Origin: an uncultured Chloroflexia bacterium
GTDB lineage: Bacteria; Chloroflexota; Anaerolineae; CG2-30-64-16
Reading direction: 5' to 3'
Assembly: GCA_963810095.1 (NCBI GenBank)
Contig: CAWEMM010000007.1
Span: forward strand, 594,559-658,558
DNA length: 64,000 nt
Below, piece after piece: positions 11,296 to 60,432 of the stretch. Within the stretch, counting starts at the first letter, position 1. Every line of letters starts with the position of its first letter. The translations under genes and the position numbers were made by a program. The notes below the pieces were generated by a model. That model was given only the letters and a program-made list of their open reading frames with translations, ran no database searches and was not told the origin of the DNA.

Positions 11296-13039
11296 CTACT
11301 TCTCCGTCCGCACCCACTCCAGATCGGCCAGGAACAGCGTGCCGCTCGGCGTCTGGTCGAAGACCAGCGCGACTTCGCAAATATCCGCCAGGTCCAGGCT
11401 TGCGAATGCAGAAAGGGGGATGCGGATTGTCGTCAGCGGCACCCGCCCCGTGAAGAGGCCGCCGAATGTTGCGTCGGCCAGCAGTTCGCCCGCCGGGTAA
11501 CGCAGGGCCGGCTCGTCGGGCCCCACAGCCACACGTGCGGTCTTCCCTGCGCCGTCCGTCATCTGCACGGCGAAACTCTGGCTCTGCCCCCTCGCATTGC
11601 GCTCTGACAGCGGATCTACCGCTGCCCGCAGGCTGACGGCCACAGCCTGGTGCAGGTCACCCTTGCCCGGCGGGATCGCGAAGCGCCACGCCGCGACTCG
11701 TTGCACGGCGCCGGCGCTGTCCCAACTTACCACGGCCAGCGCGGGTTGGCCGGGCACGACAACAGTCGCCCGCCGGCACGGCTCGGTCCCGGGCCGGGTC
11801 AACGGCGTGTAGCTGCCCGCGTCGCAGAAGAACGCGCTGACTCCTTGTGTCTGCACGGCTCCGCCAAGACGGTTCGTCGTGAGTTCGCCGTCCACGGCCG
11901 GTGCGAAGAGCGCCGTGCGTCCTGCTGCCGGATACAGCGTCGCCACTCGGGCCTCAAGCCCTCCTACCTGCGTCAGTGCGGGCAGCGCCGGGCTCATACC
12001 GAGCCATCGCAACCCCTGCTCGCCGGCCGTGGACCCATCGAAGATCGTGTCGAAGAACGCGTCTGCGTACTGAGTCAGAAACGTCTGCTGGGTCTGGGGA
12101 TCGAGCAGCGAGGTGCAGTCTGGCCGGCCGGGCGTGCCGAACGGGTCGGCGCCGAGCGTCGTGTTGAACCCGTTATGGTTGGCGCGCTCGATGAACGCGG
12201 ATGTCACCCACGCTTGTGGCCGGCCTCGCCAGGCGCGCGCCTTCATAGAAATGCTGCCCGTCCTGCTCGGTGACGTCGCCGTCACACATCGGGAGGATGA
12301 TGCCCAGGGGAACCGGCGTGCCCGGCGCCGGGTCGGTGAAGCCCGGCGACGGCGCGACCATGAGGATGCCCGCAGGGGGGGCGTAGCTCCCTGCCCCGGT
12401 GGCGACCATCCCCGTGCCCGTGGCCAGCAACAGCGCCTGGTCGCCGCCGCGCGAGTGACCAACGAACGCAAGCCGCTGCGTATCGACCTTGCCCTCGAGG
12501 TCGACGCCAAAGCCATTCGCGCCGCCCGCCGATGCGGCCGCCAGCGCGGCCAGCTGCTTGTCGACGATCTGCGTGAGGCGCTCGCCGGCAACCGGCTCGC
12601 CGAAGCCAAACGTATTCTCCGCGTTGATATTGATCGAAAGGGCGACGTAGCCGTTGGCGGCCAGGTGCTCGGCCAGGTAGGTAAAACCGCGGTAGTTGGG
12701 CTGCTCCAGCGCCGGGTCACACGGCCAGCGGTCGACGTGGTCGATCTCCGGGCAGCCGGGGTGCGTGCCGTGCAGGATGACGATGACCGGGAACGGTCCC
12801 TCACCCTCGTTCGGGACTGCGATGACCCCGTTCAGCCGCACCGGCATGTTGTGAAACCGGCTGTCTTCGGGAAAGTTGGCTTGCACGACGGTCGCTTCGC
12901 CCAGGTCGTACTCGACGGCCGCCGGGCGCGCGTCCGGGGTGGCCGCGGGGGATGGCAACGCTGCCGGCGCCGCGGCGGGTGGCAGCGGCACGCACCCGGC
13001 CAGGAGCAAGGCCAGCGTCGCAAGGATCAGCACGCGCAT
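11296..13039 (-). CDS. Lipoprotein alpha/beta hydrolase (frameshift ~12200)
   Basis: Lipobox LLAGC; GHSRGG nucleophile elbow; CDGDV; ANHNGFN. Confidence 0.8.
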
Positions 13040-13113
13040 TTTACTTCTCCAACAACAGCGCGATCAGGCCGAGGACGCCGCCCGCGGCCATTGTCGTCAG
13101 CCCCCGAAGTCGC

Positions 13114-13764
13114 TCATTCCGATTCTACGTCCGGCAGAACCGGCTGCGTCTGCCAGTTGTAGCGCTGCGCCAGCGTGCGAACCACAATGAACAGGGCGAT
13201 CACGATCCAGGCCGCCACGGTCGCTGCGACGTGCAGATAGACCTCCAGTACGACGAACAGGATGCACGAGATGAACCCGGCCGACAGGTAGAACCGGCCC
13301 GGCTTGAGCACGGCGGGGGTATTGCCCACCGTGATGTCACGCAGGATGCCGCCGCCGAAGCCGTTAATCATGCCGATCAGCACCACGCCCGGCAGCGTCA
13401 TGCCGGCCACGAGCGAGAGCTGCATGCCGACCGTGGCAAAGGCAGGCACGCCGATCCCGTCGATCAGGCTAATCAGGTTGTCCACCAGGCGCATGCCCAC
13501 GATCTGCCTCCGAAATAACCCGGCCACAAATGCGGCGAGCAGGATCAGAGGCAGATACCAGACGTTGGTTACGACGGGCGGCATCGTGTTCAGGAACAGC
13601 CCATCGCGCAGGGTGCTGCCGCCCGTCGCGGCAAGGAGCGCGATCACGCAAACGCCCGCAAAGTCATAGCGTTTGTGCATGCCAACAATCGCGCCGCTCA
13701 ACGCCCAGAGGAAGGTGGCGAAGTAGTCGAAGAGCGGCGGAAGCTGGAAGTATTCCGTTCCCAT
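13114..13764 (-). CDS. TRIC / UPF0126 family membrane protein
   Basis: ALSGA, ATGGSTLRD, GFGGGILRD duplicated motif. Confidence 0.9.
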   Translation of the reverse strand: MGTEYFQLPPLFDYFATFLWALSGAIVGMHKRYDFAGVCVIALLAATGGSTLRDGLFLNTMPPVVTNVWYLPLILLAAFVAGLFRRQIVGMRLVDNLISLIDGIGVPAFATVGMQLSLVAGMTLPGVVLIGMINGFGGGILRDITVGNTPAVLKPGRFYLSAGFISCILFVVLEVYLHVAATVAAWIVIALFIVVRTLAQRYNWQTQPVLPDVESE

Positions 13765-43676: not shown

Positions 43677-44351
43677 CTACGCTCGGAGCTGCTCGGCGAG
43701 AAACGCCAGCGTCCGCTCCCATGCCAACTGGGCCGCCTGCGGATTGTACGCTTCCGGGCGGTCCGTCTCAAAGAACCAGTGGGTGGTGCCCTCGTAGATA
43801 AAGAAGCTTGCCGGCCGGCCCACTGCCTTCAACGCGGCCTGCAATTCCTCCATCCCCTCTCGCGGCTCGTAAGGGTCGTTCTCGGCGAAATGGCCGAGGA
43901 AGGCGGCCGTTGCCGGGGTGAGGTCGGGCGCGTATGCGCCGTAGAAGAGGACGACCGCGCCCACATTCGCCGGTCGCATCGCCGCCAGCACCGAGGCCCA
44001 CGCGGCGCCGAACGAGAAGCCGATCACGCCGATGCGTTGGCTGCGTGACCGGCGCACCAGGAAGTCGACCGCCTCGCCGGCTGCCGCCTGGATATGCTCC
44101 GACCACTCGGCCTCGACGGTCTGGACCAGCTCCTGCGCCTCCTCGACGGTCTTTGCGATGCGGCCCTTGAAGAGATCGGGCGCAAACGCGGTATACCCGG
44201 CCTGCGCCAGCCGGTCGCACACCGCCTTGAACGTGTCGTTCAGCCCCCACCACGCGTGCAGCACCAGTACGCCCGGCCCGCCAGCGGCCGGCGCCGAAAG
44301 GTATCCTTCGTACGCCTGCTTTTCGCCATATCGCGTCATTTCACCAGACAT
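43677..44351 (-). CDS. Dienelactone hydrolase family protein
   Basis: HAWWGLN, APDLF, GFSFGA, FYG, HWF. Confidence 0.92.
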   Translation of the reverse strand: MSGEMTRYGEKQAYEGYLSAPAAGGPGVLVLHAWWGLNDTFKAVCDRLAQAGYTAFAPDLFKGRIAKTVEEAQELVQTVEAEWSEHIQAAAGEAVDFLVRRSRSQRIGVIGFSFGAAWASVLAAMRPANVGAVVLFYGAYAPDLTPATAAFLGHFAENDPYEPREGMEELQAALKAVGRPASFFIYEGTTHWFFETDRPEAYNPQAAQLAWERTLAFLAEQLRA

Positions 44352-44360
44352 GTTCGCCTC

Positions 44361-44893
44361 TCATTCGGATCGGAACTCGCGAAATTCGCCGGTTTCCTCC
44401 ATGTACGCCCAGCCGTCCATGCCGGGTGGCCGGATGCCCAACTGCGTGATGATCGCTGAGACTTGTTCCCGGTGCTCGGTCGCGTGGTTGATTGCCTGCA
44501 TGAGCAGACTGCCGAGTGGATACTCGACGGAAAGCCCTTGCTCCGGGTCGGTTTCTCGCACAAGGCTATCGGCCCTCGCGCCCATGGCCAGCCGAGCCAG
44601 CTCATCGCCCGATTCGCGCGCGTCCGAGCGCAACACCTGGAACCCGGGGAATGCGTCGCCCGACAGCCAAGCGGGCGGCATCTTTCTCGTGACCCGGCTG
44701 GCAGTAGTCCACCTGCGCCCCGACGAGATGCGCCAGGGTCGCGCGGATTGAGCCGTGCGCGCCCACAGCGGTTGCCCTCAACTGCTCGTCGGTCAAGTTC
44801 GCGGCAGAAATCAAGCAGCCTGAGGTTGGCCCACGTATTATGGCGGAACATGGTCGTCAAAACGCTCGAATCACCCTGTCCGTTTACCGACAT
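44361..44893 (-). CDS. DinB family protein (frameshifted)
   Basis: FRHNTWAN..L, GSIRATLAH, QAINHATEHREQ. Confidence 0.82.
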
Positions 44894-45212
44894 CCCCTAT
44901 CTCCCTCTCCAAGCCCAACCTACTTCATTGACTACAAGAGCGCCAGCCATGTTATCACGGCCGGTCGGATGCGCAAGCAATCATGGTCACCGTTTCACGT
45001 TTGAGATTAAGCCTTCACCGCACGCTGCCGGACAACGAGGGACCAAATAGCACACTGATCGAACGGACCGGACTGACGATCACGATCTTTATCAAAGGAG
45101 AGTGGGGACCTGGATCGCTGTACCCTGTGCTCGCCTGGTCGCAGGAAACAGACCCGCGTTATCTGCGCCACCCCCGCCTGCACCCCGCTCCATCCAAGCG
45201 ACCAATCGCCCA

Positions 45213-45301
45213 GCTGGCATCGACCGGCCGGCGCGGGCAAGGGTGATGGCCGCAGCCAGTCCATTTGGGCCCGCGCCGACGATCACCGCGTCGTAGCTCA
45301 C
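45213..45301 (-). pseudogene. 5' fragment of a phytoene-dehydrogenase-like FAD oxidoreductase
   Basis: VSYDAVIVGAGPNGLAAAITLARAG overlaps the upstream stop codon, then similarity ends. Confidence 0.7.
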
Positions 45302-46080
45302 TTCCGCAACACCTGCCTGGCCAACTGTCCGGGCAGATGCAGCATCGTGCGGATGGCGGCGTTGTGCCAGATGTTCCGTGCCTGCCCCCACTGCATCTTC
45401 GGGTCCACCAGCTCCCTGCGCTGAGTAACCACCGGCTCGTGAACGTTAAAGTGGCCGGCGAGGTTGGCCAGGGTGCCATGCCAGAAAGCGTCCTCGTTCG
45501 GATGCCCGAGCCCCAGCCGGAACATTAGCTCGAAGATCGGGTCGCTAGTCCGGATTAACGCCTGCACCTGCGCCATCACGCCCTCGTCTTCATCCGCCGC
45601 GCTGAATGTGATCATGCCGGCGAACATGTGGCCTTGAGGCGTCATGAACGAGAATGACTCGTCGTCCGCGTAGATGACCATGATCCCGGTGGAGATCAAC
45701 GGGCCGCCGCCCGGTGCAGACCTGCCGCCCGGCCCAGCCAAATTCAGCACCGCCACCTGCCCCGGTGCGATCCCTGATGCTTCGCCGTAGAAATTATTGC
45801 CTGCCGGCCAAAACTTCGAAAAGTTGTCCTTCCAGGCCCGGATCACCTGCTCCGGCGAGATGTCCGCGCCGTCCAGACGCACGCGATATGTCTTCTGCCA
45901 CATCTGGCCGAAGCCCAACAGCGGCCCGGCCAGGTGGCGTCCTTCGACGTTCAGGTTCAGGGCCCCGATTGGCATGGTGGGCGCCTTGAGCGCGTCCACG
46001 GAGGGCGCCCAGTTCGCCGTGTCACGGCGGGAAGTCTGGCTCGTCGGCTGGTCAGCCCCTTGGGCGGTTGGCTCGATCAT
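45298..46080 (-). CDS. Conserved hypothetical protein coupled to the STAS genes
   Basis: 260 aa intact ORF; GFGQMWQKTY, FMTPQGHMFAG; starts 3 bp after the STAS stop. Confidence 0.8.
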   Translation of the reverse strand: MIEPTAQGADQPTSQTSRRDTANWAPSVDALKAPTMPIGALNLNVEGRHLAGPLLGFGQMWQKTYRVRLDGADISPEQVIRAWKDNFSKFWPAGNNFYGEASGIAPGQVAVLNLAGPGGRSAPGGGPLISTGIMVIYADDESFSFMTPQGHMFAGMITFSAADEDEGVMAQVQALIRTSDPIFELMFRLGLGHPNEDAFWHGTLANLAGHFNVHEPVVTQRRELVDPKMQWGQARNIWHNAAIRTMLHLPGQLARQVLRK

Positions 46081-46083
46081 AGG

Positions 46084-46485
46084 TTACTCCTTGTGCTGGT
46101 GGCGACCGCCATCGGCCGGCGCCACGCTGCGGTTCTCCGCCTCGGCAAGCGCGCCGGTCTCGTCTCCACAAATACGAATCGCCTTGTCGAGCTGGGTCAG
46201 TTCGAAGATCTGCTTGTAGTGCTCGCTCAATCCGAAGGCGACCAGCCCTTGCTTCTGGCGCTGGGTGCGAATCAACAGCGTCACAAGGAGACCGATGCCT
46301 GAGCTGTTCATGTACTCCAGACCGCTGAAGTTCAGGATGATCGCGTGAGCGCCGGCCGCGGTGGCCCGCGTGTAGGCGTCCATCAGGACGCTTTCGGCCG
46401 GACCGGTGACCTCTCCCCGGATATCCAGGATGCTGATTCCAGGGTTGATCGTTCGAATCGTAATCTCGAGTTTTGCGGGAGCCAT
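46084..46485 (-). CDS. STAS anti-sigma factor antagonist
   Basis: ILNFSGLEYMNSSGIGLL, IFELTQL. Confidence 0.92.
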   Translation of the reverse strand: MAPAKLEITIRTINPGISILDIRGEVTGPAESVLMDAYTRATAAGAHAIILNFSGLEYMNSSGIGLLVTLLIRTQRQKQGLVAFGLSEHYKQIFELTQLDKAIRICGDETGALAEAENRSVAPADGGRHQHKE

Positions 46486-46516
46486 GGTGTCTCCTGTGCT
46501 GGCGTCCGCCAGCGAG

Positions 46517-46867
46517 CTATCTGCTACCAGCGAGCGCGGTCGCCTCATCTTGGAAGACCGTCATGAAGTCGGCCAGCCGGGTAATTTGGAAGATCTCCTG
46601 GTAGTGCGGGCTGAGCCCGTAGACCAGCAGCCGGCGTTTGGCCTTGCGCGCACGGGCCAACAGGCCGACGATCAGCGCAATGCCGGTGCTGTTGATGTAG
46701 TTGACCTCGCCAAAGTTCAACACGATGGTCGAGGGGTTGCGGCTTTCCGCCTCGGTATAGGCGGTGCTCAAGGCTGCCTCCGCCGCCGCGTTGATATCTC
46801 CACGCAAATCAATCATGGCCGCGTCCGGTTGGAACCGGGTCGTGGCCTCAAATCGTATGGCTGGCAT
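46517..46867 (-). CDS. STAS anti-sigma factor antagonist
   Basis: VLNFGEVNYINSTGIALI, IFQITRL. Confidence 0.92.
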   Translation of the reverse strand: MPAIRFEATTRFQPDAAMIDLRGDINAAAEAALSTAYTEAESRNPSTIVLNFGEVNYINSTGIALIVGLLARARKAKRRLLVYGLSPHYQEIFQITRLADFMTVFQDEATALAGSR

Positions 46868-48500
46868 CGCGATCTCCTTTCGCTCCCAGGTTGACTATCA
46901 GGTCGACGGAGTGATGGATGCCGTCGTCGGTCACGCGTACATCGTCCACCATGCTGCGGATGAGGAAGAGGCCCCAGCCGCGCGGCGATTGCAGGCCCGC
47001 CAGCTTCGCGTCCAGATCGGGCGTGTCGATCTCGGGAATGGCCTTACCACCCCCATGGTCGGTGATGCTGGTGATCAACTCGTCGCCGGCGGTCTGCACG
47101 CGGATGGCGACCGGCAGGTTGGGATCGTAGTGATTGCCGTGCTCCATGGCGTTCATCGTCGCCTCGGCCACCGCGGTTTTGAGCCGCTCCAGTCGGTCGG
47201 CGGGCAGGTCCAGCCCCATCACTGCCGCTGCGACCTGTTCCATCGCCTCGCGCTCATTGTCGGGCGCGCTGGGGACGGCGAAGTCGGCCAGGACGACTGT
47301 AGGGCCTCTTGTCGACAGCCTCGGGCGTTTCGAATCATCCAGCGAATCGCCGAGTGGCCCGAGCACCGGTCCGGTCCGCTCCAACGTCACGAAGGTGACG
47401 TCGTCTTCCTGCTCCCAGCCTGGCCCCACAAAGTCGGCCAGGGCGCTGCGCAGGTGCTCGATCACTTCCGCGCCGTTGCCCAGTCCACAAGCCATGCCCC
47501 GCAGGCGTGGGAAGCCGAACATCTCGCCCTGCGGATCGTGTGCCTCAACCAGGCCGTCCGAGTAGATCAGGATGCTCTCACCGATCCCCAACAGCGCCTC
47601 GTGCTCGTCATAAATCATCCCGGGCATCAGGCCCAGCGGCATGCCCGTGGCACGCAACTCGACGACGGCATCCCGGGTGCACCTGGCGGGCAGATTGTGC
47701 CCGGCGTTGGCGAAGACGAAGCACCCGGTATGCGGGTTGAGCACCCCATACAGGCAGGTCACGAACATGCCGGGCGGGATGTCGGGGCAGAGCAGTTCGT
47801 TGACGTGCGCCAACACCTTGCCGGGCGACGCGGGATCCTGTTCGGCCGCCACACGTAAGATGCCGCGCGCCGTCGCCATGACCAACGCTGCCGGCATGCC
47901 CTTGCCGGTCACGTCGGCCTCCACGATGCCCAGGTTGCCGTCGGGCAGGTTGATGAAGTCATAGAAATCGCCGCTGACGGCCTGGGCCGGCTGCCAGTAC
48001 GCGGCCAGGTTCCAGCCTGGCAACTGTGGCAGTTCCTGCGGCAGCAAGGTCTGCTGGACAACGCGAGCGACCCGCAGCTCCTGTTCCAGCCGCTCACGGG
48101 CCTGCGTCTCGATGTGCTGCTGGCGGACGAGTTGCGCCACGCGCACGGCCGGCGCGGCCTGGGCCGCCAGGTCGCCTAGCAGCCGGCGGTCGTCGGCCGA
48201 GTAGTCCTGTTCGCTGCGCCGCGGGCCCAGGTTCAGCAGACCGATCAATTCGCCCTGGCCGGCCAGCGGCGCGACAGTTTAACCCCCGCTTCGCGCAGTG
48301 AACGCAGCGCCGGCGAATCCAGCTTCAGTCGCTCCAGGTCTACCACTCCGCCCGCGCTTAGCAGATACGCGCTCAGCGGGTCATTCGGCGCGAAGTCCAG
48401 CGGCAGGATCTGGGCCGCGACGGGAGCCGGCCACTGCCTGGGTCTGCATAGGCACGGTCACGATTGAATCCCCGCTGGGTCTGCGAAATGGGTTATGCAT
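46848..48500 (-). CDS. Partial GAF + SpoIIE/RsbU PP2C phosphatase + RsbW-like kinase fusion (frameshifts ~48420, ~48275)
   Basis: NDPLSAYLL..DSPAL..PL..QGELIGLLNLGPR (GAF C-half); EQEL.VAR..Q.LLP, SGDFYD, DVTGKG, NAGH, YSDGL, EDDVT; EATMNAMEHGN, DHGGG, RGWGLFLI. Confidence 0.88.
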
Positions 48501-48528
48501 ATCTGCTCCGTTTCATCTTGACGCAGTC

Positions 48529-48573
48529 AGTGTACCCGGCCACCGTCCTGAGATCGTTACGGCAAGCGTCACG
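48529..48573 (-). promoter_or_regulatory. Motif-class promoter 1 (-10 TACACT)
   Basis: + strand agtgta(48529-34), 20 bp, cgttacg(48555), cgtcacg(48567). Confidence 0.7.
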
Positions 48574-48619
48574 AACAGCCAATCTGCCTGAGCCAGAGTC
48601 GATTTCTACCGATTGACCA

Positions 48620-50154
48620 TCAGTAGCGTGTATCTTTCTTGAGCCACACACTCACGCTCTCCGGCGCCACCGTCTCCTGCACCACGCGCGCCAGCTCCGC
48701 CGTCAGGCGTTCCAGGTCGGTCTCGTCGCGGGCGGTGAGAGCGAACCGGGCCAGCACCTGCTGGGCATCGTACTTCTTGCGGAAGAAGCGCCGGTCGATG
48801 AAATCCTGGATGCGGCGGCGCAGCGGCGTGAACAAGACTACGATGGCCAGTGTCGAGACGGCTACCGCCAGCGGCGACTGCTCGACTCCGGTCAATGCGG
48901 CGACCAGCCGCTGCAGCAGCACCACCCCGCCCAAGTAGACCAGGGCCAAGAGCGCGGTCAGCGCGCCATACACCAGCGTCTTGCGGATGATGAGGTCGAT
49001 GTCGTACAACCGATAGCGCAGGATAGCAATAGCAATGGCCATGGGGAAGGTCAGGATCGAGACGACAAACAGCAGATCCAGCCAGCCGCTTGCTGAGCCC
49101 CATTGGCCAGCAGTCGAGAGAAAGTAGTTCAGGGCGTAACTGACGGCGAACACAGCCGCGGCATAGAGCAGCCACTTGATCTGTTGGCGTTCGCCGACCG
49201 AGGCGCGACGATAACGCAAGAACAGAGATGCGAGGCTGGCGAACACCAACGTTATCAGCCCGATGCCCCAGACAATCAGGATCGGACCCAGCCACACTCG
49301 ATCCGGAATGAAACCAATCGGATTCGGAAGCCTCCAGTTGGCATTGAGGGGGCCCATTGTGTCCAGGAAGGAGCCAAAACCGATGAAGAACAACCACATG
49401 CCCAAGGCAAGCCAGTTCACCCAGTGCCAGCGGGTAGAAGGCGGGCGACCGCCAGGAAAATGGAGCGGGATCAGGAAGATGGGAAAGATAACCGGTATCC
49501 ACGACCAGCCATCGAACCAGAGAAGCAGCCAGAGGCCGGTCGTGAGCGCACTCGGGGTAGCGGGCAGTCGTCCCAGGATTGTCACGACAGGATTGACGGT
49601 CGCCGAGCGCGATGACATCATAGCCAGCCGACCCGGTTGGAGGGCTGGCGCACGATGATCAGGGCGGCCAACGAAGAGAACACCACGGGAATCATTAGTC
49701 CCCACCCCAGTGCTTCGACCCAGTCGAAGAGCGAGATGGGGGATTGCTGTTTGGCAACCAAAACGCCAATTGAGCCAGGGCGCCCAGCGTGCAGAGCCGG
49801 TAGGCCTTGGAAAAGGCGTGCCAGACGGGTATGGTTCTGCCATTCCCAAACCGACCATCATCGCCGAAACAATCAGCGCACCGCATCGTTTTTTCGCAAG
49901 AAGATCACCAGCCCAATGGCACCCCAGGCGAGCGTGTTTGGCCACTGCAACAAGTAGTTGAACATCGCGTAGAGGTTGACGCTCACGCCCATTGCTTCCA
50001 AACCCTGAACCGTGCCTGCTGGCGGAACAATGCCTTGCATCTGGCGAAATGCTGCTATCTGGCTAACGACCCAAAGACCGGTAAGTGCCGTGGCAAACAC
50101 GACCCACGCTACCTGGGCGTAGGTGAGGCGGCGGCCCGATAGTCCCTCGCTCAT
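48620..50154 (-). CDS. Multipass membrane sensor-like protein 1 ending in a GAF N-terminal fragment (frameshifted)
   Basis: [68 protein letters not shown] then stop. Confidence 0.85.
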
Positions 50155-50182
50155 ACTTTCCGTTGCTCCCTGTGTGCCTTTC

Positions 50183-50238
50183 ACCATACCAACAGCCCGT
50201 ACCCTAATCGTTACGGACACCCGGGGGGATGCCGTCAC
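50183..50238 (-). promoter_or_regulatory. Motif-class promoter 2 (-10 TATGGT)
   Basis: accata(50183-88), 20 bp, cgttacg(50209), cgtcac(50233). Confidence 0.7.
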
Positions 50239-51703
50239 TATCGCGTCTCCACTACTCGCTCCTCTCCCACTCGGCCGGCGCCGCGGCCAAGCGCGCGCCA
50301 CTCGTGCGCCATCGGCGTGACGCCCAGGTCCGCCACGAGGCGGCGGGCGGCCAGTCCCAGGATCGCCGTGAACGTTGGATACGCGATCTGCAGCTCGGCG
50401 AGTTGCTCGACCCACATGTCGGCCGCGATAGCAGCGGCAGCCACGTGCACGACCTCGAGCGCCTGCTCGCCGACCACGTGCGCGGCCACCAGCCGGTGCG
50501 TCTCCCGGTCGGCGATCAGCTTGCAGAAGCCCTCGGTGCGGCCGTCGATTACTGCTCGGTCCAAGTCTGCGTAGGGCACGACCGCGACGGCGATGTCGCG
50601 CTCTTTGCGCGCCTGCTCCTCCGCCGGCCCGACGCTGGCGTACTCTGGGTGCGTGAACCCGCCGTGCGGCACGATCTGGTGCTCCTTGCGCCCGTTACCG
50701 CCCAGCAGTGCGTTCTCGGCCGCGATGCGCGCCTCGTAGCCGGCGCTCTGCACCAGCATCATGCGCCCATCGATGTCGCCGGCCGCATAGATGTGCGGCA
50801 CCGAGGTGCGACAGGTGGCTGTCGGTGATGACGTAGCGGCCATCCGTCTCGACGCCGGCCGCAGCGAGGTTCAGCCCGTCCAGGTTGCCCAACCAGCCGG
50901 TAGACATAATCACCGCTTCGACAAGTAACGTCTGAATATGCGTCGCCCAACTGGTAGGCCAGCGCCAGCTCATTCCCCTGTCGCTCGAGGCGCGTCACGC
51001 CGCCGATGCCGGTGATGATGTCGACGCCCACGGCGCCCATACGCCTCGGTCATGCGTTTCCGAAACGAGCCGGTCCTCGATGGTCAGGATGCGCGGGGCC
51101 ACGTCCAGTACGGTCACCCGGCTGCCGAACGCGCTGAAGATCGTGGCCAGTTGGCAGCCAGTGGCTGCGCCACCCACGATCGCGACCGAACGCGGCAACG
51201 CCTGCAGGCGCCAGATGTCACTGTGGGTCAGCGCCAACTCCGCGCCGGGGAAATCGAGCCGGCGCGCCGCGGCCGCCCGCGGCCAGGACGAACTTCTCGC
51301 CTACGAACTGCCGGCCATCGGGCACAGCAACGGTGTGCGGGTCCAGAAACCGCGCCACGCCCACCCCGACATGGACCTCGACGCCCGAGGCCTCCAGGTG
51401 CGCCAGATGTTGCTTCTTCTCGTGCATCTCGTAGATGATGGCCTGGGTGCGCGCCAGCAAGCGCCGAAAGTCGAGCTCCGGTCGTGCGAGGGTCAATGCC
51501 ATAGGCCTCATATTGGCCGGCGTTATCCATCAGGCGTGCAGCCCGACGCCAGCGACCCGCGTCGGCACGCAGCCGTCATTGGTGCACGTGCCGCCCAGGC
51601 TGTCGTCGCGCTCGATGAGCGCCACTGACGCGCCCAGCTCGCGGCCGCGCAGCGCAGCGGTCACGCCAGCCGGTCCCCCACCGATCACGATCAGGTCGTA
51701 CAT
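50238..51703 (-). CDS. Flavoprotein disulfide reductase (lipoamide DH/MerA/SthA class I; multiple frameshifts)
   Basis: YDLIVIGGGPAG, GGTCTNDGCVP, IVGGAATG, IYAAGD, FTHPE.ASVG, AYPT. Confidence 0.88.
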
Positions 51704-51708
51704 GTGGG

Positions 51709-53065
51709 TTACACTGCCTCCAGTGCGCTGGCCGTCTCGACCCGCCCGACTTCGCCGTCCACCGCGACGTGGTAGGTCCGTAAGCGCGCTTGGCAGGGCC
51801 AAGCAGCACCTCGCCGGTGGTCACGTCAAAGCAAGACGCATGCCAGGGACAGACGATGATCGTTTCGTCGAGCTTGCCCTGGCTCAGCGGCCCGCCGGTG
51901 TGGGTGCACTCATCCTGCGTCGCGTAGAACTGCCCTGCGACGTTATAGACCGCCACGTTCATGCCGTCCACTGTCACCCGCGTAACCTGTCCCGGCTGCA
52001 GGTCGGCAACCCGAAAATGATTGGATCCGCCGGCAGCCGGTTGACCGGACGGTTCCGAACATACCATGCAAGCGAGATATCCGGCTCATCGCGTTTGTAG
52101 ACCGGGATCCGTACGGTCACGCGGCCATCGCGCACAGTCACCGGGTACTTGGGCAGGACTGCGGTCCGGTCCAGCAGCAGCTGCCCGGTGGCGAGGGCGT
52201 ACTGATACCCGTGCCACGGGCAGGTCAGCGTGCCATTGGTCAGATCACCCGCGCACACCGGTCCGCCGCGGTGCAGGCAGCTGTTCTGCAGCGCGACCCA
52301 TTCCCCGTCCTGATGGAAGACGCCGACAGATAAGCCCTCGGCATCGATGATCTTGCGCTGCCCTTCGGGGATCTCGTCGACCGTCCCGACCAGCACCTCG
52401 CGATACTCGATCGTGCGCGCGATGCCAAGCGCCTTCTCATAGGTCTCCACAGCCAGATCGCGCACCGGCTCCTCGTCCATCTCCTCGCGCGCCTGAAAGG
52501 TTTCCGGCTCGCGGCCCTCGCCATACGGCCTCGCCAGTTGCTCGAGCAGGACCATGAGCAGGGCCTGCCACGCGGTCCGGGCCCGTGCCTCCAGGTCAGG
52601 GTCTATTTCCCGCAGCTCCGCCGCCAGGGCTTCCGTCACCCGCTGTCCCACGAACCCCACCATGCCAAGCACGTAGCGCTCGGGAATATAGACCGTGGGA
52701 TCGGCGCCCAGCGAGGTGTGCGCTCGGCCGACGTAGTCCACAAAGCGCGCGTAGTCCTCGTCGAAGACGCCGGCCGCAGTGCGGCGCCAGAAGCCGGCCT
52801 GGTGCTGCATGCGCAGCGCCAGGTAGGCCTGGTCAAGCGTTCCGTCCGGTTTCAGGAAGTGTTTGCGCGTGGCCGGGAAACTCAGCACCTGGGCGTAGAA
52901 CTCGCCGACGATCGCGGGGATGTGCTTCTCGATCACGAAGCGCGTCTCCCGGATAGCTTCCGCATGCTCAGCGCTGAACCCGACAAAGTCGGACATGAAA
53001 GCAAAATAGCGGCCCGCGTCGGGCGCGCCGCGCTTGAATCGTTCTTGCGTTGACAACTCACTCAT
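51709..53065 (-). CDS. Protoglobin-domain protein fused to two Rieske [2Fe-2S] domains (frameshifts ~52065, ~51785)
   Basis: FMSDFVGF, IVGEFY, YVGRAH, IPERY (protoglobin/sensor-globin pattern); CLH..CPWHG and CTH..CPWHA Rieske ligand sets. Confidence 0.8.
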
Positions 53066-53132
53066 TATTCCAGAACCCTCATCCATCGGCTCGCGCAGTA
53101 CAAAGCGTTACTTCACACTCTATTCGTTTGTC

Positions 53133-53178
53133 ATCCTACCAGTCCACCGTCCGCCAATCGTTACGGATGCGAGTGACG
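53133..53178 (-). promoter_or_regulatory. Motif-class promoter 3 (-10 TAGGAT)
   Basis: atccta(53133-38), 20 bp, cgttacg(53159). Confidence 0.7.
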
Positions 53179-53179
53179 T

Positions 53180-54303
53180 CTATATCGCAGCCACGCGCTC
53201 ACTGTCTCCCGCTGCTGCGTCTACCTGCCACGACGCGCTGCACTCCAAGTCGTCGCAGGCCGTCAGCGACCGCTGAACCAGAGACACGAAGAAGCCGGTC
53301 CAGCGCTCGTCAAAGCTGCCACGAAAACACTCAGTCGCGACGTAGACACACATCGCCACGCACAACCTGTAGTCATAGAGCAGTTGCTCCCAGGTGTATC
53401 CACAGCACGCCACATCTCTCCAGGCAGGCGAGGTAGTGTTCGAGAATGGGCATCCCCCATTCCCTGTGCGCCTCGATCTCCCAGTCCAGCACGAGGGCAT
53501 GGGCCAGGTCATAGACGCCCAGCCACGTGGTCATTGCCCAGTCAAAGGGTTGGCGGTCAATCACGTAGATGGGGCGATCGCCCAGGCGCGGCACGAGTAT
53601 GTTCTTTGCGCCGGGATCGCCATGAATGAGCGTGAATCCGTTCGGGTTCATCGTCCGTTCCACCATAGCCCGCGAATGGTTCGCGAACAGCTCGCGCAGG
53701 GAGTCCGGCCAGTGTGGCTTCAGCTCGGATGAGAATCGCCCTAGGAGGTGATCCACCCCCGCTTCGGCCACTGTGACGAAGTCCCGGATTTGACTGGCGC
53801 TGTGCATGGGCGCCCCTGCTTCCATGAGCCGCTGTCCGCCCCACCAACGGGCATGTAGAACGGCGAAGCCCTCTGCGAGCGCGAACCCATAGTCAAGCGT
53901 CGGCGCTTTTTCGGACGCGGTGACATGTGTCTCCGACACGTCGTCCAGGAGGAGGTGGTATCGCCCGAGCACGTCCGAGTACTGCGCGTCGTAGCAATGC
54001 AGCAGCGGGGCGCCTTCCACATCCACGTAATCCCGCCGGTAGTACGTGACTTCCGAGTCGTCGAACGACTCGTCACCAGGGTGGGTATTGACCATCTTCA
54101 AGAACAGGCATCGCGGCAGCGACCCTTGCGCCCCATCCGTGTAATTCACGAGCCAGCCTGGCGTTGGTGGACCAGTTCCCCTGCCCTGACTCCAGCTCGA
54201 AGGACGCGACCGCACCGTGCGTCAATGCGCCGCGGGCCGCGAGGACCGAGGTCAACCACCCGGTTGTCACCTGCTCAATGTTGGTGATCACGTTATCTGC
54301 CAT
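53180..54303 (-). CDS. APH/EcKinase-like phosphotransferase (frameshifts ~54165, ~53405)
   Basis: LFLK, E..YY, LLLDD, HARWW, TLIHGD...N, YDLA. Confidence 0.82.
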
Positions 54304-55438
54304 GCGGGCTTTTCGTTTCTCGCAGCCACACACTCACGCCCTCCGGTTGCAGCGTCGCCTGCACGACGCCCGTCAACTCCGCCGTCAGCGCGTCCAGGTC
54401 GGTTTCATCGCGTGCCGTTAGGGCAAACTGAGCCAGAACCTGTTGCGCGTCGTATTCTTCCGGTAGAAGCGACGGTCGATGAAATCCTGGGTGCGCCGGC
54501 GCAGCGGCGTGAACAAGACACGATGGCCAGCGTCGAGACGGCCACCGCCAACGGAGACTGCTCGACGCCTGTGAGCGCCCCGACCAGCCGCTGGAGCGAG
54601 CACGACGCCCCCGAAGTAGACCAGCGCCAGCAGCACCGTGAGAATCGAATAGACCAAGGTGCGGCGGATGATGACGTCGATGTCCCACAGGCGATAACGC
54701 ATGATCGAGATCACGATGGATCCTGGGAATACGATGAGGAAGGCGGTCCACAGAAAGAAACCCAGTTGCTCGCTAGCTGTACTCGCGCTAAAGAAATTCG
54801 TTCCCGCAAACAAGACGAGAGCGATCCCTAATGGCGGTAAGATCACGGCAAGCCCGAAGACGACCCACTTGATCTGCTGGCGCTGGATCGCATCAGAGAC
54901 ACGGAGGTAACGGTAGATTTGGGCAAGCGCTGCTGTGATCATCAACAGCCCCATCATGGGGAAGGCCTTCTGCATGTACGCGTCCGGGAAGAAAATCCGC
55001 CAAAGCTGAATTCCAGACACAACAAGGGCAGCCACGCGCGTCCAGCGCGGCACGAAGCGCCCGTCCGGAAAGATATAGAACAGGCAGATCAGAAGCGTGC
55101 TCGAGAGTGCGGCAAACACGAGATCAAGGCGCACGGCGAATGGCTCGCTCCCAAAGACCAACTCGAACTTGTCGGTTGAGAGGGATACGATGAGCACAAG
55201 CGAAAAGATAAAGGCGACCAGGTCGTCGGAACGCCGCCAGAAGATAAGAATGCCGAGGACCAGGTAGACCGCCTGAAGCACGATCTCAAGCCAGACTTTT
55301 GGGTCTTGCGACGCGCTTCCCACGGTCTGGGGCAAGGCAAGCAAGTCGAGGATCACAAATACGACGGCGATGACCGTCCACAACGCGCGCATCAGTACCA
55401 GTTGCCGGCCGGTCAGGCGGCTGCTGTTCGCGTGTCAT
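54293..55438 (-). CDS. Multipass membrane sensor-like protein 2 ending in a GAF N-terminal fragment (frameshifted)
   Basis: [59 protein letters not shown]. Confidence 0.82.
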
Positions 55439-56763
55439 GACTTCTGCTCCCGACCGCGCAGCCACACGCTCACGCCTTCCGGCTGCAGCGTCTCGTCCAC
55501 CACCCGCACAAGTTCGCTGGTAAGAGCGTCCAGGTCGGTCTCATCGCGGGCCGTTGACGGCGAACCGGGCCAGCACCTGCTGGGCGTCGTACTTCCTCCG
55601 GTAGAACCGCCGGTCAACAAGCTTCTGGATGCGGCGGCGCAGCGGCGTGAACAAGACGCACGATGGCCAGCGTCGAGACCGCCACCGCCAGCGGCGACTG
55701 CTCGACGCCGGTGAGCGCGGCGACCAGCCGTTGAAGCAGCACGACGCCCCCGAAGTACACCAAAGCCAGGAGCGAAGTCACAACGCTATAGACCAGCGTC
55801 TTGCGGATGATGACATCGATGTCGAAGAGCTTTGAGCGGAGGATTGCCACGCCGATGGACAGGAAAACAACCTGAAACGCCATGGCCGACACGATCAGAA
55901 AGGCAGAACGCCGAAGTAAGTCTCGATCGCTCTGCGTGCCCAGAGTGGCGTCACCGGTGATGCCGATGTAGGCAAAGGTTGTCAAGAGGAATGCTGGTAT
56001 GGCGCCGAGACCGAACAGCACCCACCGCGTTTGCTGGCGCTCTGCCGGGCTGGACACGCGCCGGTAGCGATAGATTTGCGGCCGCCACGCCGCCGAACAT
56101 CACGCTCAAGCCAACCAGTCCATGTCCAGAAGGATCCCAGCGGGTTGCTGCTGCTGCCTCAAGTCCAGCGTCGACTGCAGGAAGTAGCCGATGCCGAAGT
56201 AGGCGACGACGATCCAGTACAGCCGGGGCACCATACGTCCGTTTGGAAAAAGGCCGAAGAACAACGGCAAAGAGACAGTGGAGAGCAGGTCGAGGATCTT
56301 TGCGGGGACCTGAAACGCGGGATATGCCGCTGCCAGTACGCTCACCCCTTCTCCAAGCGTGACCCATGTGATGAAGAAGAATGAGATCAGCAGGGCGATT
56401 GGTTCGCTGCGCCTGCGTGCGAAGATCAGGAACCCGAGCGTGAGGGGAACCAGGGCAAAAACGCCGCGAAGACTGACCCGCAGGAGCGCATACGCGTCCA
56501 AGGAGAGGCCGCGGGCGGCAAGTTGTGCGACCCCGGTGGGCGTGGCAAAGTCGAACTGGGCGCATTGCTCGGCCGTCGCCGTGCATACCTGCCGCAACTG
56601 GCCGTAGTACATAACTGATCCGGCCACGTACATCGAGCAGCGCGGGCACGACGACATCAACCCAGGCGACTTGCGCGAGGTGCATCCAGCGCAACGTCCG
56701 CAAATGGGATTTTGGCGACTCGGTCCCCTGCGATTGGATCGCTTGCGACCCACGGTCTCTCAT
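55435..56763 (-). CDS. Multipass membrane sensor-like protein 3 ending in a GAF N-terminal fragment (frameshifted)
   Basis: VC....QC loop, [51 protein letters not shown]. Confidence 0.82.
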
Positions 56764-56848
56764 CTGATGCTCCCGTCTGCTGCGTTGCAGTGTATTACAT
56801 GTGCACACGCCTGAGTCTGTAGCGCAAGTTGTTTGTGGGCGTCTGCCC

Positions 56849-57330
56849 TTACCGGGTGCCTGCGATCAGCCAGCCCAGTACCGCCCCGTAGATGAGGTGG
56901 GCAAGTGCTAAGTGCACGGTTGGGAATCTCCCGCAGCGCCGCGCCTGCGCCGGTCAAAGCCAGCCCTTGTGCCACAAGCAGCAGCGCGAGCCCATAGGCC
57001 AACCCGATCAAAAGCGCCCCCAACGCGGCCGGTCCAGCGGCCCCGGACGACCAGCCGGTAGAAAATCCCGAACAGAAGCCCATAGACGGCCGAGACCGCC
57101 AGGTGGATCAGCGTGCCCATCACCGGCGAGCCTTGCCCGGCTGGATCAAAACGGGCCAGGATAGAAAGCGGCCCTGCACCCCCGACCAGGCCGGCCACCA
57201 CTAAATAAGCGGCCATCGCACTGCCGGCAGCTGCGCCAGCCAGCAGCCCATCGACTGCCGCATCGCTCGTCGTGTGGCGGCCTTCTGCAACGGTCGCACC
57301 GGTCTGAGCCATCCTTGTGCTCCTTGGCAT
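56849..57330 (-). CDS. Small 4-TM membrane protein with two H-x(3-6)-YG motifs (frameshifted)
   Basis: GLLAGAAAG.AM, LIHLAVSAVYG, LAHLIYGAVLG. Confidence 0.7.
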
Positions 57331-57366
57331 GACGCCCTCCTCGATCTTCTGCACCTGTTGCTCATC

Positions 57367-57411
57367 ATAATAATCCGCCCCCGTAGCCTAATCGTTACGG
57401 TGACCGTCACG
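57367..57411 (-). promoter_or_regulatory. Motif-class promoter 4 (-10 TATTAT), in the divergent region next to the SARP regulator
   Basis: ataata(57367-72), 20 bp, cgttacg(57393), cgtcacg(57405). Confidence 0.72.
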
Positions 57412-57481
57412 GGGCGGCAATTCGTTGCGTTTCCTTGTATCCGGCGGTACAATTTCGTCGGTCAGGCAGGGAGGGAAGCAC

Positions 57482-60432
57482 ATGGCCCTACTCACGATCC
57501 GGCTCTTGGGCGTTCCCCGTATCGTACGCGACGGTGCGCCGGTCGTCGTTGACACGCGTAAGGCGATCGCCCTTTGGCCTACCTCGCACTTACCGGCCGC
57601 GTCCACGCCCGCGAGGCGTTGGCTGCGCTACTCTGGCCCGAATACGACGACGAGCACGCGCGGGCGGCTCTGCGCCGGACGCTGTCCACGCTCCGTGCAG
57701 CGCTAAGCGAGCCCTATCTGGCTGTCGAACGCGAATCGATAGGCCTGATCTCCGGGGCAGGCGTCTGGGTAGATGTGGCGGCGTTCAACGAGCGGCTGGC
57801 CGCCTGCCGGACCCATGGCCATCCCGCGGCCGATGTCTGCCCCTTATGCCTATCGCCCCTGGCAGAAGCGGCGGAGCTCTACGAAGATGACTTCATGGCC
57901 GGCTTCACCTTGCGCGATAGTGTCAACTTCGACGATTGGCAGCTCGTCTCAGGTCGAGAGCCTGCGCAGTGCCTTGGCTGAGGTATTGGAGAAGCTCGCG
58001 TGCGGCTATGGCGCCCAGGGTGACTTTGCCGCCGCGTTGGCATCGGCCCGGCGGTGGTTAGCAATGGACCCCTTGCGCGAGGAGGCGCACCGCCAGGTGA
58101 TGCGACTTTACGCGTGGTCCGGCCAGCGCAACGCCGCCATCCACCAGTACCGTGAGTGCGTCGGCATCCTGGAGCAGGAGCTGGGCGTGACGCCGCTGGC
58201 GGAGACCACCGAGCTGTACGAGGCGATCAAGGGCAACACGCTGCCTGAACAGGTAGACCTAAGAAGTCGCCCCAAGCCCGTAGGCTCTCCAGCGTCATCT
58301 GCCGTGGATCTGCCAGGACTCGCAGAAGGGTCCGCCCGTTCGCTCCCTCTGGTCGGCCGGGCCGCCGACCTGGCGGGCCTGATCCATTCATACGAACAGC
58401 ACGGGGCCGGCGGCTACTTCGTGGCGATAGAGGGTGAGGCCGGCATCGGCAAGACGCGGCTCGCCGAGGAGTTCCTGGCCCATGCGCGCGCCGAGGGCGC
58501 GACGACGATCACCGTGCGCTGCTTCGAGGGGGAAGCGGCGGTGGCGTACGGGCCGATCGCCGATGGATTACGCGCGGCCTTACGTGAACGTCGTGTGCGG
58601 AACGAACAGCAGCCATCCCGGCCCATTGGCTGAGCGAAGCCGCTCGCCTGCTGCCCGAGTTGCTCGCCTCCCATCCCGAACTCCCGTCGCCCCTGCCAGT
58701 CGACGCCCTGGGCGGACAAAGCCGCTTCTTCGAGGCGTTGCGCCAGGTGCTGATGAGCTTCTGTCGCGGACCGGTGCCCAACGTGCTCTTCTTCGATGAC
58801 ATCCACTGGGCGGACTCGGCCTCGCTCGACCTGCTGGCCTACCTGGTGCGGCGGCTACACGGTCAGCCGCTCTTTCTGCTCGCGACCTGGCAGGGCGAGG
58901 ATCCGACTCATCGCCAGCGATTGGCCCACCTGGTCGTCGACGCCCAGCGCGGTCATACCGGCATGGCCATGCGCCTGGCTCGGCTCAAGCCGGCCGATGT
59001 GCTCGATCTACTCCGCGCGGCCGGAGACGCGGTCACATCGCTGCCCGTCAGAGATCGGCAGCCGGCTGTATCACGAGACGGAGGGACTGCCGTTGTTCCT
59101 GGTCGCCTACCTCGAAGCACTGGCGCAGGGCAATAGAGCAGGCGAGGGCGGGGCGGAGTGGCCGGTGCCACCTGGGGTAATTGACCTCTTGCGGGCTCGG
59201 CTGGATACAGTGGGGGACGCCGCACGGCAGGCCCTGCAGGCAGCGTCTGTGATAGGTCGTTCCTTCGACCTGGAGGCGCTGCACAGCGATCAGCGGTCGT
59301 AGCGACGAGGAGATCGTGTTGGCACTGGAAGCCCTGACCAGCCACGGGATCTTGCGGGAGATTGCGGAAGGCACGGGCGCGGCTCCATCGTATAACTTCA
59401 CCCACGAGAAGCTGCAAGGCCTGGTCTACGATGAGACGGGCCTGGCCCGGCGCCGGCTGCTGCACGGCCGCGCGGCTAGGTTCTTATCGGAGCGAGCCCG
59501 ACTCCGCCGAGATCTGGCAGCCCACGCGGCGCAGATCGGCCGTCACTTCCGGCTGGCTGGACAGGATGCCGACGCAGCATCCCATTTCGCCCTGGCTGGC
59601 GACCACGCCCGCAGCCTCTATGCCAACGCCGAGGCGTTGGCGCAGTTCCAGGCCGCGTTAGCCTTGGGCCATCCCGAGACTTGCCGCTTGCACGAGGCTA
59701 TCGGCGACATGCACACGCTTCTGGCAGCCTACACCGCGTCGCTGGCCAGTTACGAGGTGGCGGCGGCGTTGTGCGAGCCAGGCAGTCCAGCGCTGGCCGA
59801 GATCGAGCACAAGCTCGGGAACGTGCATGCCCGCCGCGGGGAATGGCTTTCTGCTGAGGCGCACTTCTCGGCCGCGTCGGACATACTCGGCCGCCCGGAG
59901 TTCCCCGCGGCGGTAGGTCGGATCTTGGCCGACTGGAGCCTCGGCGTCCATGCGCAGGGGCAGCCGGAGCGGGCACTCAGTCTGGCCCGGCGATGCGCTA
60001 TTCTTGACGGAGTCGGCGTCTGACCAGCCCGGTATGGCCCAGGCACACAACATCCTCGGCATCCTGGCGCGCAGCCGTGGGGACGCCGCCGGCGCTGCAG
60101 CGCACCTCGAACAGAGCCTGGCCATCGCTGAGGCACTGCCTGACCCTAGCAGTCGCGTCGCAGCGCTCAACAACCTGGCCCTCGCCCGCGCGGACAGCGG
60201 CGACCTGGTGGGGGCCACGGCCCTGGCCGAGCAAGCGTTGGCGCTGGGAGTTGCCGTGGGCGACCGGCATCGGGAGGCCGCACTGCGCAATAATCTGGCG
60301 GACCTGCTGCATGCAGCCGGCCGCCGCGAAGAGGCGATGGCTCAGCTCAAGCAGAGTGTGGTGATTTTCGCTGAGATCGGGCTGGCGGCCGGCGACACTC
60401 AGCCGGAGATCTGGAAACTGACAGAGTGGTAG
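57482..60432 (+). CDS. SARP/AfsR-like regulator: wHTH-BTAD-AAA ATPase-TPR (multiple frameshifts)
   Basis: IRLLG.P, R..LAALLWP, AALRRTL, MDPLREEAHR.VM, LGVTPL.ET, GEAGIGKTRL, DDIHWAD, TEGLPLF, TPR-like repeats, PEIWKLTEW end. Confidence 0.9.

Follow-up and report, generated by a model that had tools for sequence, protein, structure and literature searches.

In bacteria, sensors are usually wired to their outputs by covalent fusion or by the docking of complete domains. Switching of PP2C phosphatases through changes in the regulatory domain and linker is established for RsbU/SpoIIE-type enzymes, and in the Bacillus RsbT/stressosome pathway RsbU receives its input from a separate protein, which binds its N-terminal regulatory domain in trans and controls STAS dephosphorylation; the RsbU N-domain is a complete fold, and its partner RsbT is a soluble kinase. 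Here we describe a locus in a 64,000-nucleotide (nt) stretch of DNA from an uncultured Chloroflexia bacterium (the window; G000:C7:594559-658558, from a genome of 6.1 Mb, 65% GC, 16 contigs and 88.5% completeness) that encodes three multipass membrane proteins (sensors 1 to 3), one PP2C-kinase output protein and two STAS proteins, all on the minus strand (Table 1). The locus is like RsbT/RsbU in its apparent trans input to a PP2C regulatory domain, and unlike it in that this domain itself seems to be divided between proteins. As judged from sequence, a membrane sensor and the PP2C-kinase each carry one part of a single GAF domain, and this split between gene products is conserved in two phyla.

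The division becomes visible when the separate proteins are set beside relatives in which both parts are fused. The separate PP2C orthologues match only positions 49-132/133 of the GAF profile, 56-135/136 of GAF_2 and 43-127/129 of GAF_3, and no split protein matches one of these profiles (PF01590, PF13185 and PF13492) from end to end as a single polypeptide. A search among longer proteins with the last 133 residues of the sensor gave 316 proteins, many of them seven-transmembrane (7TM)-GAF-(PAS)-SpoIIE phosphatases, in which a ...DLDAL...VSLWL segment is followed by a linker of 15-40 residues and then by ...IAPNDP...GELIGLLNLG.... The fused proteins carry a full GAF (profile positions 1-132 or 1-133; residues 372-503 of P0020, 373-499 of P0009, 388-527 of P0118 and 35-166 of P0241), the match beginning at the DLDAL helix, which is homologous to the last helix of the split sensors. 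Because the separate PP2Cs match from about position 43 and the fused forms from position 1, at the sensor's last helix, the two halves tile one GAF; by these alignments, the sensors carry roughly profile positions 1-30 and PP2C carries position 43 to the end. An initial annotation of this DNA had proposed that the sensor end and the PP2C start would tile onto full-length 7TM-GAF-SpoIIE proteins, and they do (1-133 in the fused forms versus about 43-135 in the separate PP2Cs). At 4/4 fused loci, our hidden Markov models (HMMs) of the sensor module and of the half-GAF match in one frame, 15 residues apart, and in a fused 7TM-GAF-HisKA_2 paralogue in G000 (C12:433127-435274) both HMMs are bridged to Pfam GAF positions 3-133.

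All three window sensors stop shortly after a shared ...VSVWL, with 6 (KKDTRY), 9 (RETKSPHGR) and 7 (RGREQKS) further residues in sensors 1, 2 and 3, as first read (6-9 residues). Their juxtamembrane helix, RRRIQDxIDRRFYRKKYDAQ.., leads into the first GAF helix and strand. The initial annotation had also described divergent membrane N-parts and the lack of a catalytic domain, and both descriptions hold: in intact orthologous sensors the N-parts are 16-44% identical versus 59-85% for the last 130 residues, and Pfam gave no family at E<=0.01 for the six window sensor pieces, with one sub-threshold match to DUF4818. HisKA_7TM (PF16927) had no match in the window pieces (E<=0.01) or in the intact orthologous sensors (E<=1), GAF had no Pfam match to the sensors on their own in either set, and NCBIfam gave no family for three sensors; neither database has a model that covers the sensors.

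The position of the sensor stop is kept far beyond this locus. Scanning species genomes for the sensor module gave 79 loci, almost all in Chloroflexota, and 187 modules with a closed 3' end; the stop follows within 30 residues of the module end in 182/187 modules, and none of the 187 is fused. A profile of the soluble tail, run against 1.84 billion representatives (50% identity clusters), matched 12,827 of them at E<=0.001 and 8,066 at the stricter E<=1e-10; the tail lies within 30 residues of the C-terminus in 147 of the best 150. The sources call these proteins 'hypothetical protein' where they are named (7/12 members listed). Among P0001, P0003, P0006, P0008 and P0098, some consist of two tandem sensors, each ending in the helix-strand module, and others run on past the module into a further membrane segment and WD40 repeats; the sensor module is therefore not always C-terminal.

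Conservation of the stop bears directly on whether one fused sensor-GAF-PP2C gene was split artificially by an assembly error at 48500-48620. The assembly does hold indel errors, as that explanation would need; yet the 119-nt gap between sensor 1 and PP2C is closed by stops in every frame, the stop and the separate start recur in three orthologues from frame-clean assemblies, sensors elsewhere end at the same place, other genes follow sensors 2 and 3, and none of the best 120 PP2C homologues carries the sensor motif, the listed ones starting with MRNPFR. We consider such an artefact extremely improbable. The earlier case against it had combined the common stop position, which stands, with a motif promoter in the gap, which does not: a promoter and terminator scan found no sigma-70-like site and no terminator in 48350-48750. 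Read-through or a programmed frameshift joining sensor 1 to PP2C was rejected as well, given the stops in all gap frames and the intervening gene in locus L002.

The output protein has its own ATG and ribosome-binding site, as claimed for it (ATG at 48500, GGAG 5 nt upstream), and its start, MHNPFRRP, resembles the conserved MRNPFR start of its homologues. Pfam identifies SpoIIE (PF07228; 2e-45, 155.5 bits against a cut-off of 25) and HATPase_c_2 (PF13581; 1.5e-20, 73.9 bits against 27.4), and the GDFYD, DVTGKG, SDG, EDD, NAMEHGN and DHGGG motifs are present, the first four of which we take to be PP2C metal ligands. On the G000 genome, the half-GAF HMM matches C7:641409-643015. Orthologues at 70-79% identity occur in three of 31 related genomes as open frames of 553-563 amino acids (aa); the separate ORF read at these loci has 541-557 aa and opens with about 40 low-complexity residues and then LDLDIAPNDPLLAYL.... 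A word-based PP2C search scored 8000 candidates, 5677 of which passed E<=0.001. In the 120 best matches, which we inspected, lengths of ~510-565 aa are typical, most start with MRNPFR, the sensor motif is absent from all, and the NDP motif falls within the first 200 residues in 106 and at residues 30-49 in 95. Half-GAF PP2Cs of Streptosporangiaceae-type metagenome-assembled genomes (L158-L177, Actinomycetes) have Ala/Gly/Thr/Pro-rich leaders of 100-130 residues, not the ~40-residue MRNPFR leader. Phosphatase, serine kinase and STAS antagonists are encoded together as a partner-switching gene set, in the same order in L002-L004, and both the split GAF and its link to this output are well supported by the sequence comparisons.

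The two halves also keep company across genomes. In the loci of three related genomes (L002/L014, L003/L015 and L004/L013), 2-4 sensors lie upstream of one separate half-GAF PP2C on the same strand and stop 3-13 residues past WL, WV or WI (for example VSVWL, ISTWV). A separate half-GAF open reading frame (ORF) lies downstream on the same strand, within a 6-kb flank, at 20/79 sensor loci; a scan with the fused protein P0020 gave 80 half-GAF loci, 4/80 of them fused and 33/80 with one or more sensors directly upstream of a half-GAF PP2C. Five other genomes hold arrays of 4 to ~15 sensors, with a single half-GAF PP2C immediately downstream in three, elsewhere in one and not found in the fifth. 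We then counted both parts in 201 evenly sampled genomes of the class, each at least 85% complete, at thresholds of our own choosing (sensor E<=1e-25, half-GAF E<=1e-15) and with related genomes that are not independent: sensors occur in 16/201, half-GAFs in 14/201 and both in 13/201, bearing out the co-occurrence that the initial annotation had anticipated. The three sensor-only genomes have the weakest matches (1e-26 to 1e-30), two of them in 836- and 1350-aa frames, the other a partial match (query 1-77) in a frame of 400 aa, and the single half-GAF-only genome has 910 contigs. Both parts lie at most ~3.2 kb apart on one contig in 10/11 split genomes other than G000.

Sensor C-modules appear to evolve in concert within a locus. 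We compared 99 sensors, each with its N-part's nearest relative in another locus (some loci being from the same genome), and in 89/99 the C-module resembles a same-locus paralogue (mean best 80.7%) more than the orthologue that the N-part defines (67.2%), a pattern that fits one shared partner per genome. In the window, a 27-residue stretch is identical in sensors 1 and 3 and differs by one residue in sensor 2 (~48830-48950, 54520-54611 and 55660-55750), which suggests recent gene conversion among these paralogues.

Structure prediction was applied to the halves alone and together. The AlphaFold2 (AF2) model of the separate PP2C-kinase alone has a mean predicted local distance difference test (pLDDT) score of 86.3, with residues 1-35 disordered and residues 40-125 confidently placed; the latter comprise only two short helices, a hairpin formed by 81-87 and 90-96, and the first part of a long helix that spans 108-158. 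The modelled half-GAF lacks the five- or six-stranded GAF sheet, so the PP2C N-terminus was not modelled as a complete GAF on its own, in keeping with the original proposal. A fold search with the whole model gave only PP2C and SpoIIAB-type matches, mainly over residues 153-386, with SpoIIAB chains at Z 17-18 over residues 420-557. For the complex we combined a sensor tail with PP2C residues 1-140, both from one contig and each with its own alignment. The score of 0.60 (runs 0.59, 0.64 and 0.60; best of three controls 0.00) reached a mark passed by 58/80 solved complexes and 2/110 mismatched pairs; this multimer-type test, suggested at the outset, is rated as weak support, passing scores at or below 0.60 comprising only 7/80 solved complexes plus both passing mismatches. 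The runs agreed in at least 87% of contacts with partner pLDDT of at least 65, and the PP2C fragment was modelled at pLDDT 69-71 with the sensor tail versus 51-52 with unrelated partners.

We propose, with a probability of roughly 0.6, that interchangeable sensors dock onto a single partner-switching output by helix-strand complementation. A naturally split GAF would form the input module of the system: the sensor's terminal helix-strand would insert in trans into the incomplete GAF of PP2C and so tether the phosphatase-kinase to a membrane sensor, whose state would travel through the GAF and a 50-residue linker helix to the PP2C domain. Together with the fused RsbW-like kinase, PP2C would then determine how far the two STAS proteins are phosphorylated, with one output common to several paralogous sensors, three here and up to ~15 elsewhere. 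The trans binding, the direction of signalling and the downstream target are what we infer; of the mix-and-match docking put forward initially, the domain split and the tiling stand as found; that the sensors dock physically and are interchangeable in use is still inference.

A number of observations weigh against this proposal. The half-GAF alone is modelled by AF2 at pLDDT ~90 and might be a stable reduced domain. The complex score measures compatibility, not binding, and a pass may come simply from GAF folds that the model has learned; the AF2 model of the fused GAF (P0241 with 49 fused relatives) is unusable (mean pLDDT 50.8, predicted template modelling score 0.34). The canonical second GAF strand, which the fused kinase paralogue has, is not clearly matched by any element of the two halves or of the fused PP2Cs, and the completed fold would therefore be atypical. 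Sensors far outnumber outputs, and 6 of the best 150 tail representatives are double-sensor proteins with an internal module. At 43/80 half-GAF loci the PP2C has no sensor within 3 kb, although five such genomes (Actinomycetota), searched whole, hold 7-17 sensors in 5/5, with the array 4-5 kb from PP2C in two; in genome G031, where a sensor is present, one query found no half-GAF at E<=1e-6. Gene conversion alone could give the concerted evolution of the C-modules. Finally, none of the four window genes, PP2C or the three sensors, is a single open frame.

Several of these points would suit a pathway with the same parts and no joint GAF, in which the sensor C-module is autonomous and serves dimerisation or membrane-proximal signalling, the PP2C N-terminus is a self-sufficient reduced GAF remnant, and coupling runs through another surface or a small molecule. 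The confident model of the half-GAF alone, the internal modules of double-sensor proteins and those lying before a WD40 part, the weak complex score and the sensors scattered over many contigs in Rubrobacteraceae genomes all speak for it. It accounts poorly for a break point that falls inside one Pfam domain with halves that tile exactly onto fused relatives, for the last 28 module residues, which correspond to the GAF profile start and have no other known fold, and for the near-perfect co-occurrence in the census (of 201 genomes, 13 with both parts, 3 with a weak sensor match only and 1 with the half-GAF only). We judge a pathway of this kind unlikely, though it is the rival we take most seriously, and favour docking by complementation of the two GAF halves.

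The titles and abstract openings of the literature that we found do not describe a GAF domain split between two proteins. If docking by complementation is true, a sensory domain shared by a membrane protein and its effector would constitute a third wiring principle, in which many membrane halves compete for one cytoplasmic half, explaining how many inputs enter one partner switch. A very large family of membrane proteins that lack annotation would also gain a function, and synthetic signalling a natural orthogonal plug-and-socket pair. We entertain, at somewhat less than even odds, the broader idea that the helix-strand is a portable 'plug' and the half-GAF a 'socket', together forming a fragment-complementation bus in Chloroflexota and Actinomycetota on which up to ~15 sensors time-share one hub and concerted evolution keeps the plugs matched. 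Other outputs with a partial domain at their N-terminus might work by this logic too.

The window copies themselves are read only with frame changes, contrary to the initial assumption that the genes were intact. We placed the breaks by three-frame translation and tblastn with intact homologues: the PP2C N-terminus has two 1-base frame shifts, near 48430 and 48275, and the sensors have further breaks (Table 1). The string NDPLSAYL..QGELIGLLNLG, first read as one frame, crosses a frameshift, and the sensor 1 ORF (48620-50154) spans 1535 nt, not a multiple of 3. At least nine breaks over four genes, with neighbouring genes also in pieces (for example the oxidoreductase at 50238-51802), would suit a decayed, non-functional copy of the locus carrying real mutations, whatever happens elsewhere. 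Contigs from other runs tell differently. In comparison contigs (46000-57000), taken from runs that share at most 0.18 of sampled words with the window, run X3 has 1 base inserted behind 48275 and 1 base missing at 48430, exactly at both PP2C breaks, and in run X4 indels fall at or close to breaks of sensor 2 (54597) and sensor 3 (55654-55659); these are short contigs of low coverage, some of them derived from relatives (88-100% alike), and each indel is seen in a single contig. Because contigs from other samples have 1-base indels at both PP2C breaks, assembly error is likely. Unrelated neighbours are broken too, as an error-prone consensus would give, in an assembly of 16 contigs that is nevertheless only 88.5% complete, and between the breaks the protein is 83-94% identical to homologues. 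The window breaks are thus most likely assembly indel errors, and we regard gene decay as improbable.

The whole 44000-60000 region looks like an indel-rich consensus assembly. One-base frame shifts fragment many of its genes, including a BTAD-AAA-TPR regulator (~57574-60432, several ORFs), and the oxidoreductase is continuous for at least 130 residues in L013, unlike the window copy.

Table 1. Features of the sensor/PP2C/STAS locus, in order of transcription (window positions).
Feature	Position	Strand	Remarks
Sensor 3	55435..56763	-	Ends WLRGREQKS (stop); frame breaks near 55656, 55554 and further upstream
Sensor 2	54293..55392	-	Ends WLRETKSPHGR (stop); three frame breaks within the last ~110 codons (near 54611, 54520, 54457)
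ORF of 280 aa	53373-54215	-	No Pfam match; sequence starts ..DNVITNIEQVTTGWLTS
Protoglobin-Rieske fusion, 370 aa	51974-53086	-	Protoglobin 2.1e-20; Rieske [2Fe-2S] 1.4e-15
Pyridine nucleotide-disulphide oxidoreductase, in pieces	50238-51802	-	Split over at least 4 ORFs
Sensor 1, multipass membrane protein	48620..50154	-	Sensor-module HMM (sensorC) 3.1e-65; ~300 C-terminal codons intact; frame breaks near 49625 and ~49870
Sensor 1 terminal helix and strand (ETDLERLTAELARVVQETVAPESVSVWL)	48641..48724	-	Corresponds to GAF profile start; from alignment with fused relatives
Gap between sensor 1 stop and PP2C ATG, 119 nt	48501..48619	-	Stops in all three frames
Output protein PP2C-kinase	46848..48500	-	~35-residue leader, half-GAF, coiled-coil linker, PP2C (SpoIIE), RsbW-like HATPase_c_2
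Half-GAF of output protein (LPLDFAPNDPL ... AVRVAQLVRQQ)	48129..48406, approximate	-	GAF match of orthologue at ~43-135
STAS gene 2	46517..46867	-	Overlaps PP2C stop; Pfam STAS 3.8e-15; NSTG motif
STAS gene 1	46084..46485	-	Pfam STAS 5.9e-14; NSSG motif
DUF1990-like gene	45298-46080	-	Weak Pfam match, E 0.0083

The neighbouring genes add detail to the array. STAS gene 1 likely starts at an internal ATG giving MAPAKLEITIR, judging by the L002 orthologue, which starts MAPVKLSITVR. A DUF1990-like gene lies directly 3' of the STAS pair in the window, in L003 (3696-4316, E 7.3e-5) and in L004 (2-832), and is a candidate downstream component of the switch. The protoglobin-Rieske fusion sits within the sensor array and adjoins the FAD oxidoreductase, which is also found 3' of a sensor in L013. 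The 280-aa ORF is 3' of a sensor both here and in genome G014, after the L014 sensor at 12453-13724, its place within the array being conserved. In G014, a 108-aa predicted membrane ORF (L002 3306-3632 = L014 6247-6573), with no match in Pfam or NCBIfam, separates the last sensor from PP2C.

Among described proteins, the output has a close counterpart in Rv1364c of Mycobacterium tuberculosis (PDB 3KE6), an RsbU-RsbW fusion that likewise joins PP2C and an RsbW-like kinase in one chain (profile E 7.1e-25 over positions 162-484; VIA Z 26.2, root-mean-square deviation (rmsd) 12.6, 330 aligned). Rv1364c has no membrane partner and no split domain; its sensor and STAS domains are presumably in cis. 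Pseudomonas aeruginosa SiaA (PDB 6K4E; VIA Z 27.8, rmsd 2.6, 240 aligned) and RssB (3ES2/3EQ2; VIA Z 24.2, rmsd 3.0, 225 aligned) share the PP2C fold and differ in having other input domains and no GAF split. On the sensor side, the HisKA_7TM-GAF kinase paralogue (G000:C12:433127-435274; L095 2125-4203) shares the juxtamembrane motif and the module (sensorC HMM 7e-15), followed by GAF; unlike the split system, its GAF is complete in cis, with the second strand, its output is HisKA_2, and HisKA_7TM matches at 4.5e-11. This paralogue adjoins a receiver-histidine kinase hybrid and a LuxR-type response regulator. Also among the closest relatives are the fused 7TM-GAF-(PAS)-SpoIIE phosphatases, represented by P0020 and P0047 (NCBI 'SpoIIE family protein phosphatase [Rubrobacter sp.]') and P0009 (NCBI 'PP2C family protein-serine/threonine phosphatase [Aggregatilineales]'), which share the sensor C-module (56-66% identity, covering 98% of the 133-residue query region), the half-GAF and PP2C. 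In contrast to the locus described here, they hold these parts in a single chain and pair each output with one sensor; the C-terminal HATPase_c_2 kinase is missing from most, and in many, PAS domains separate GAF from PP2C.

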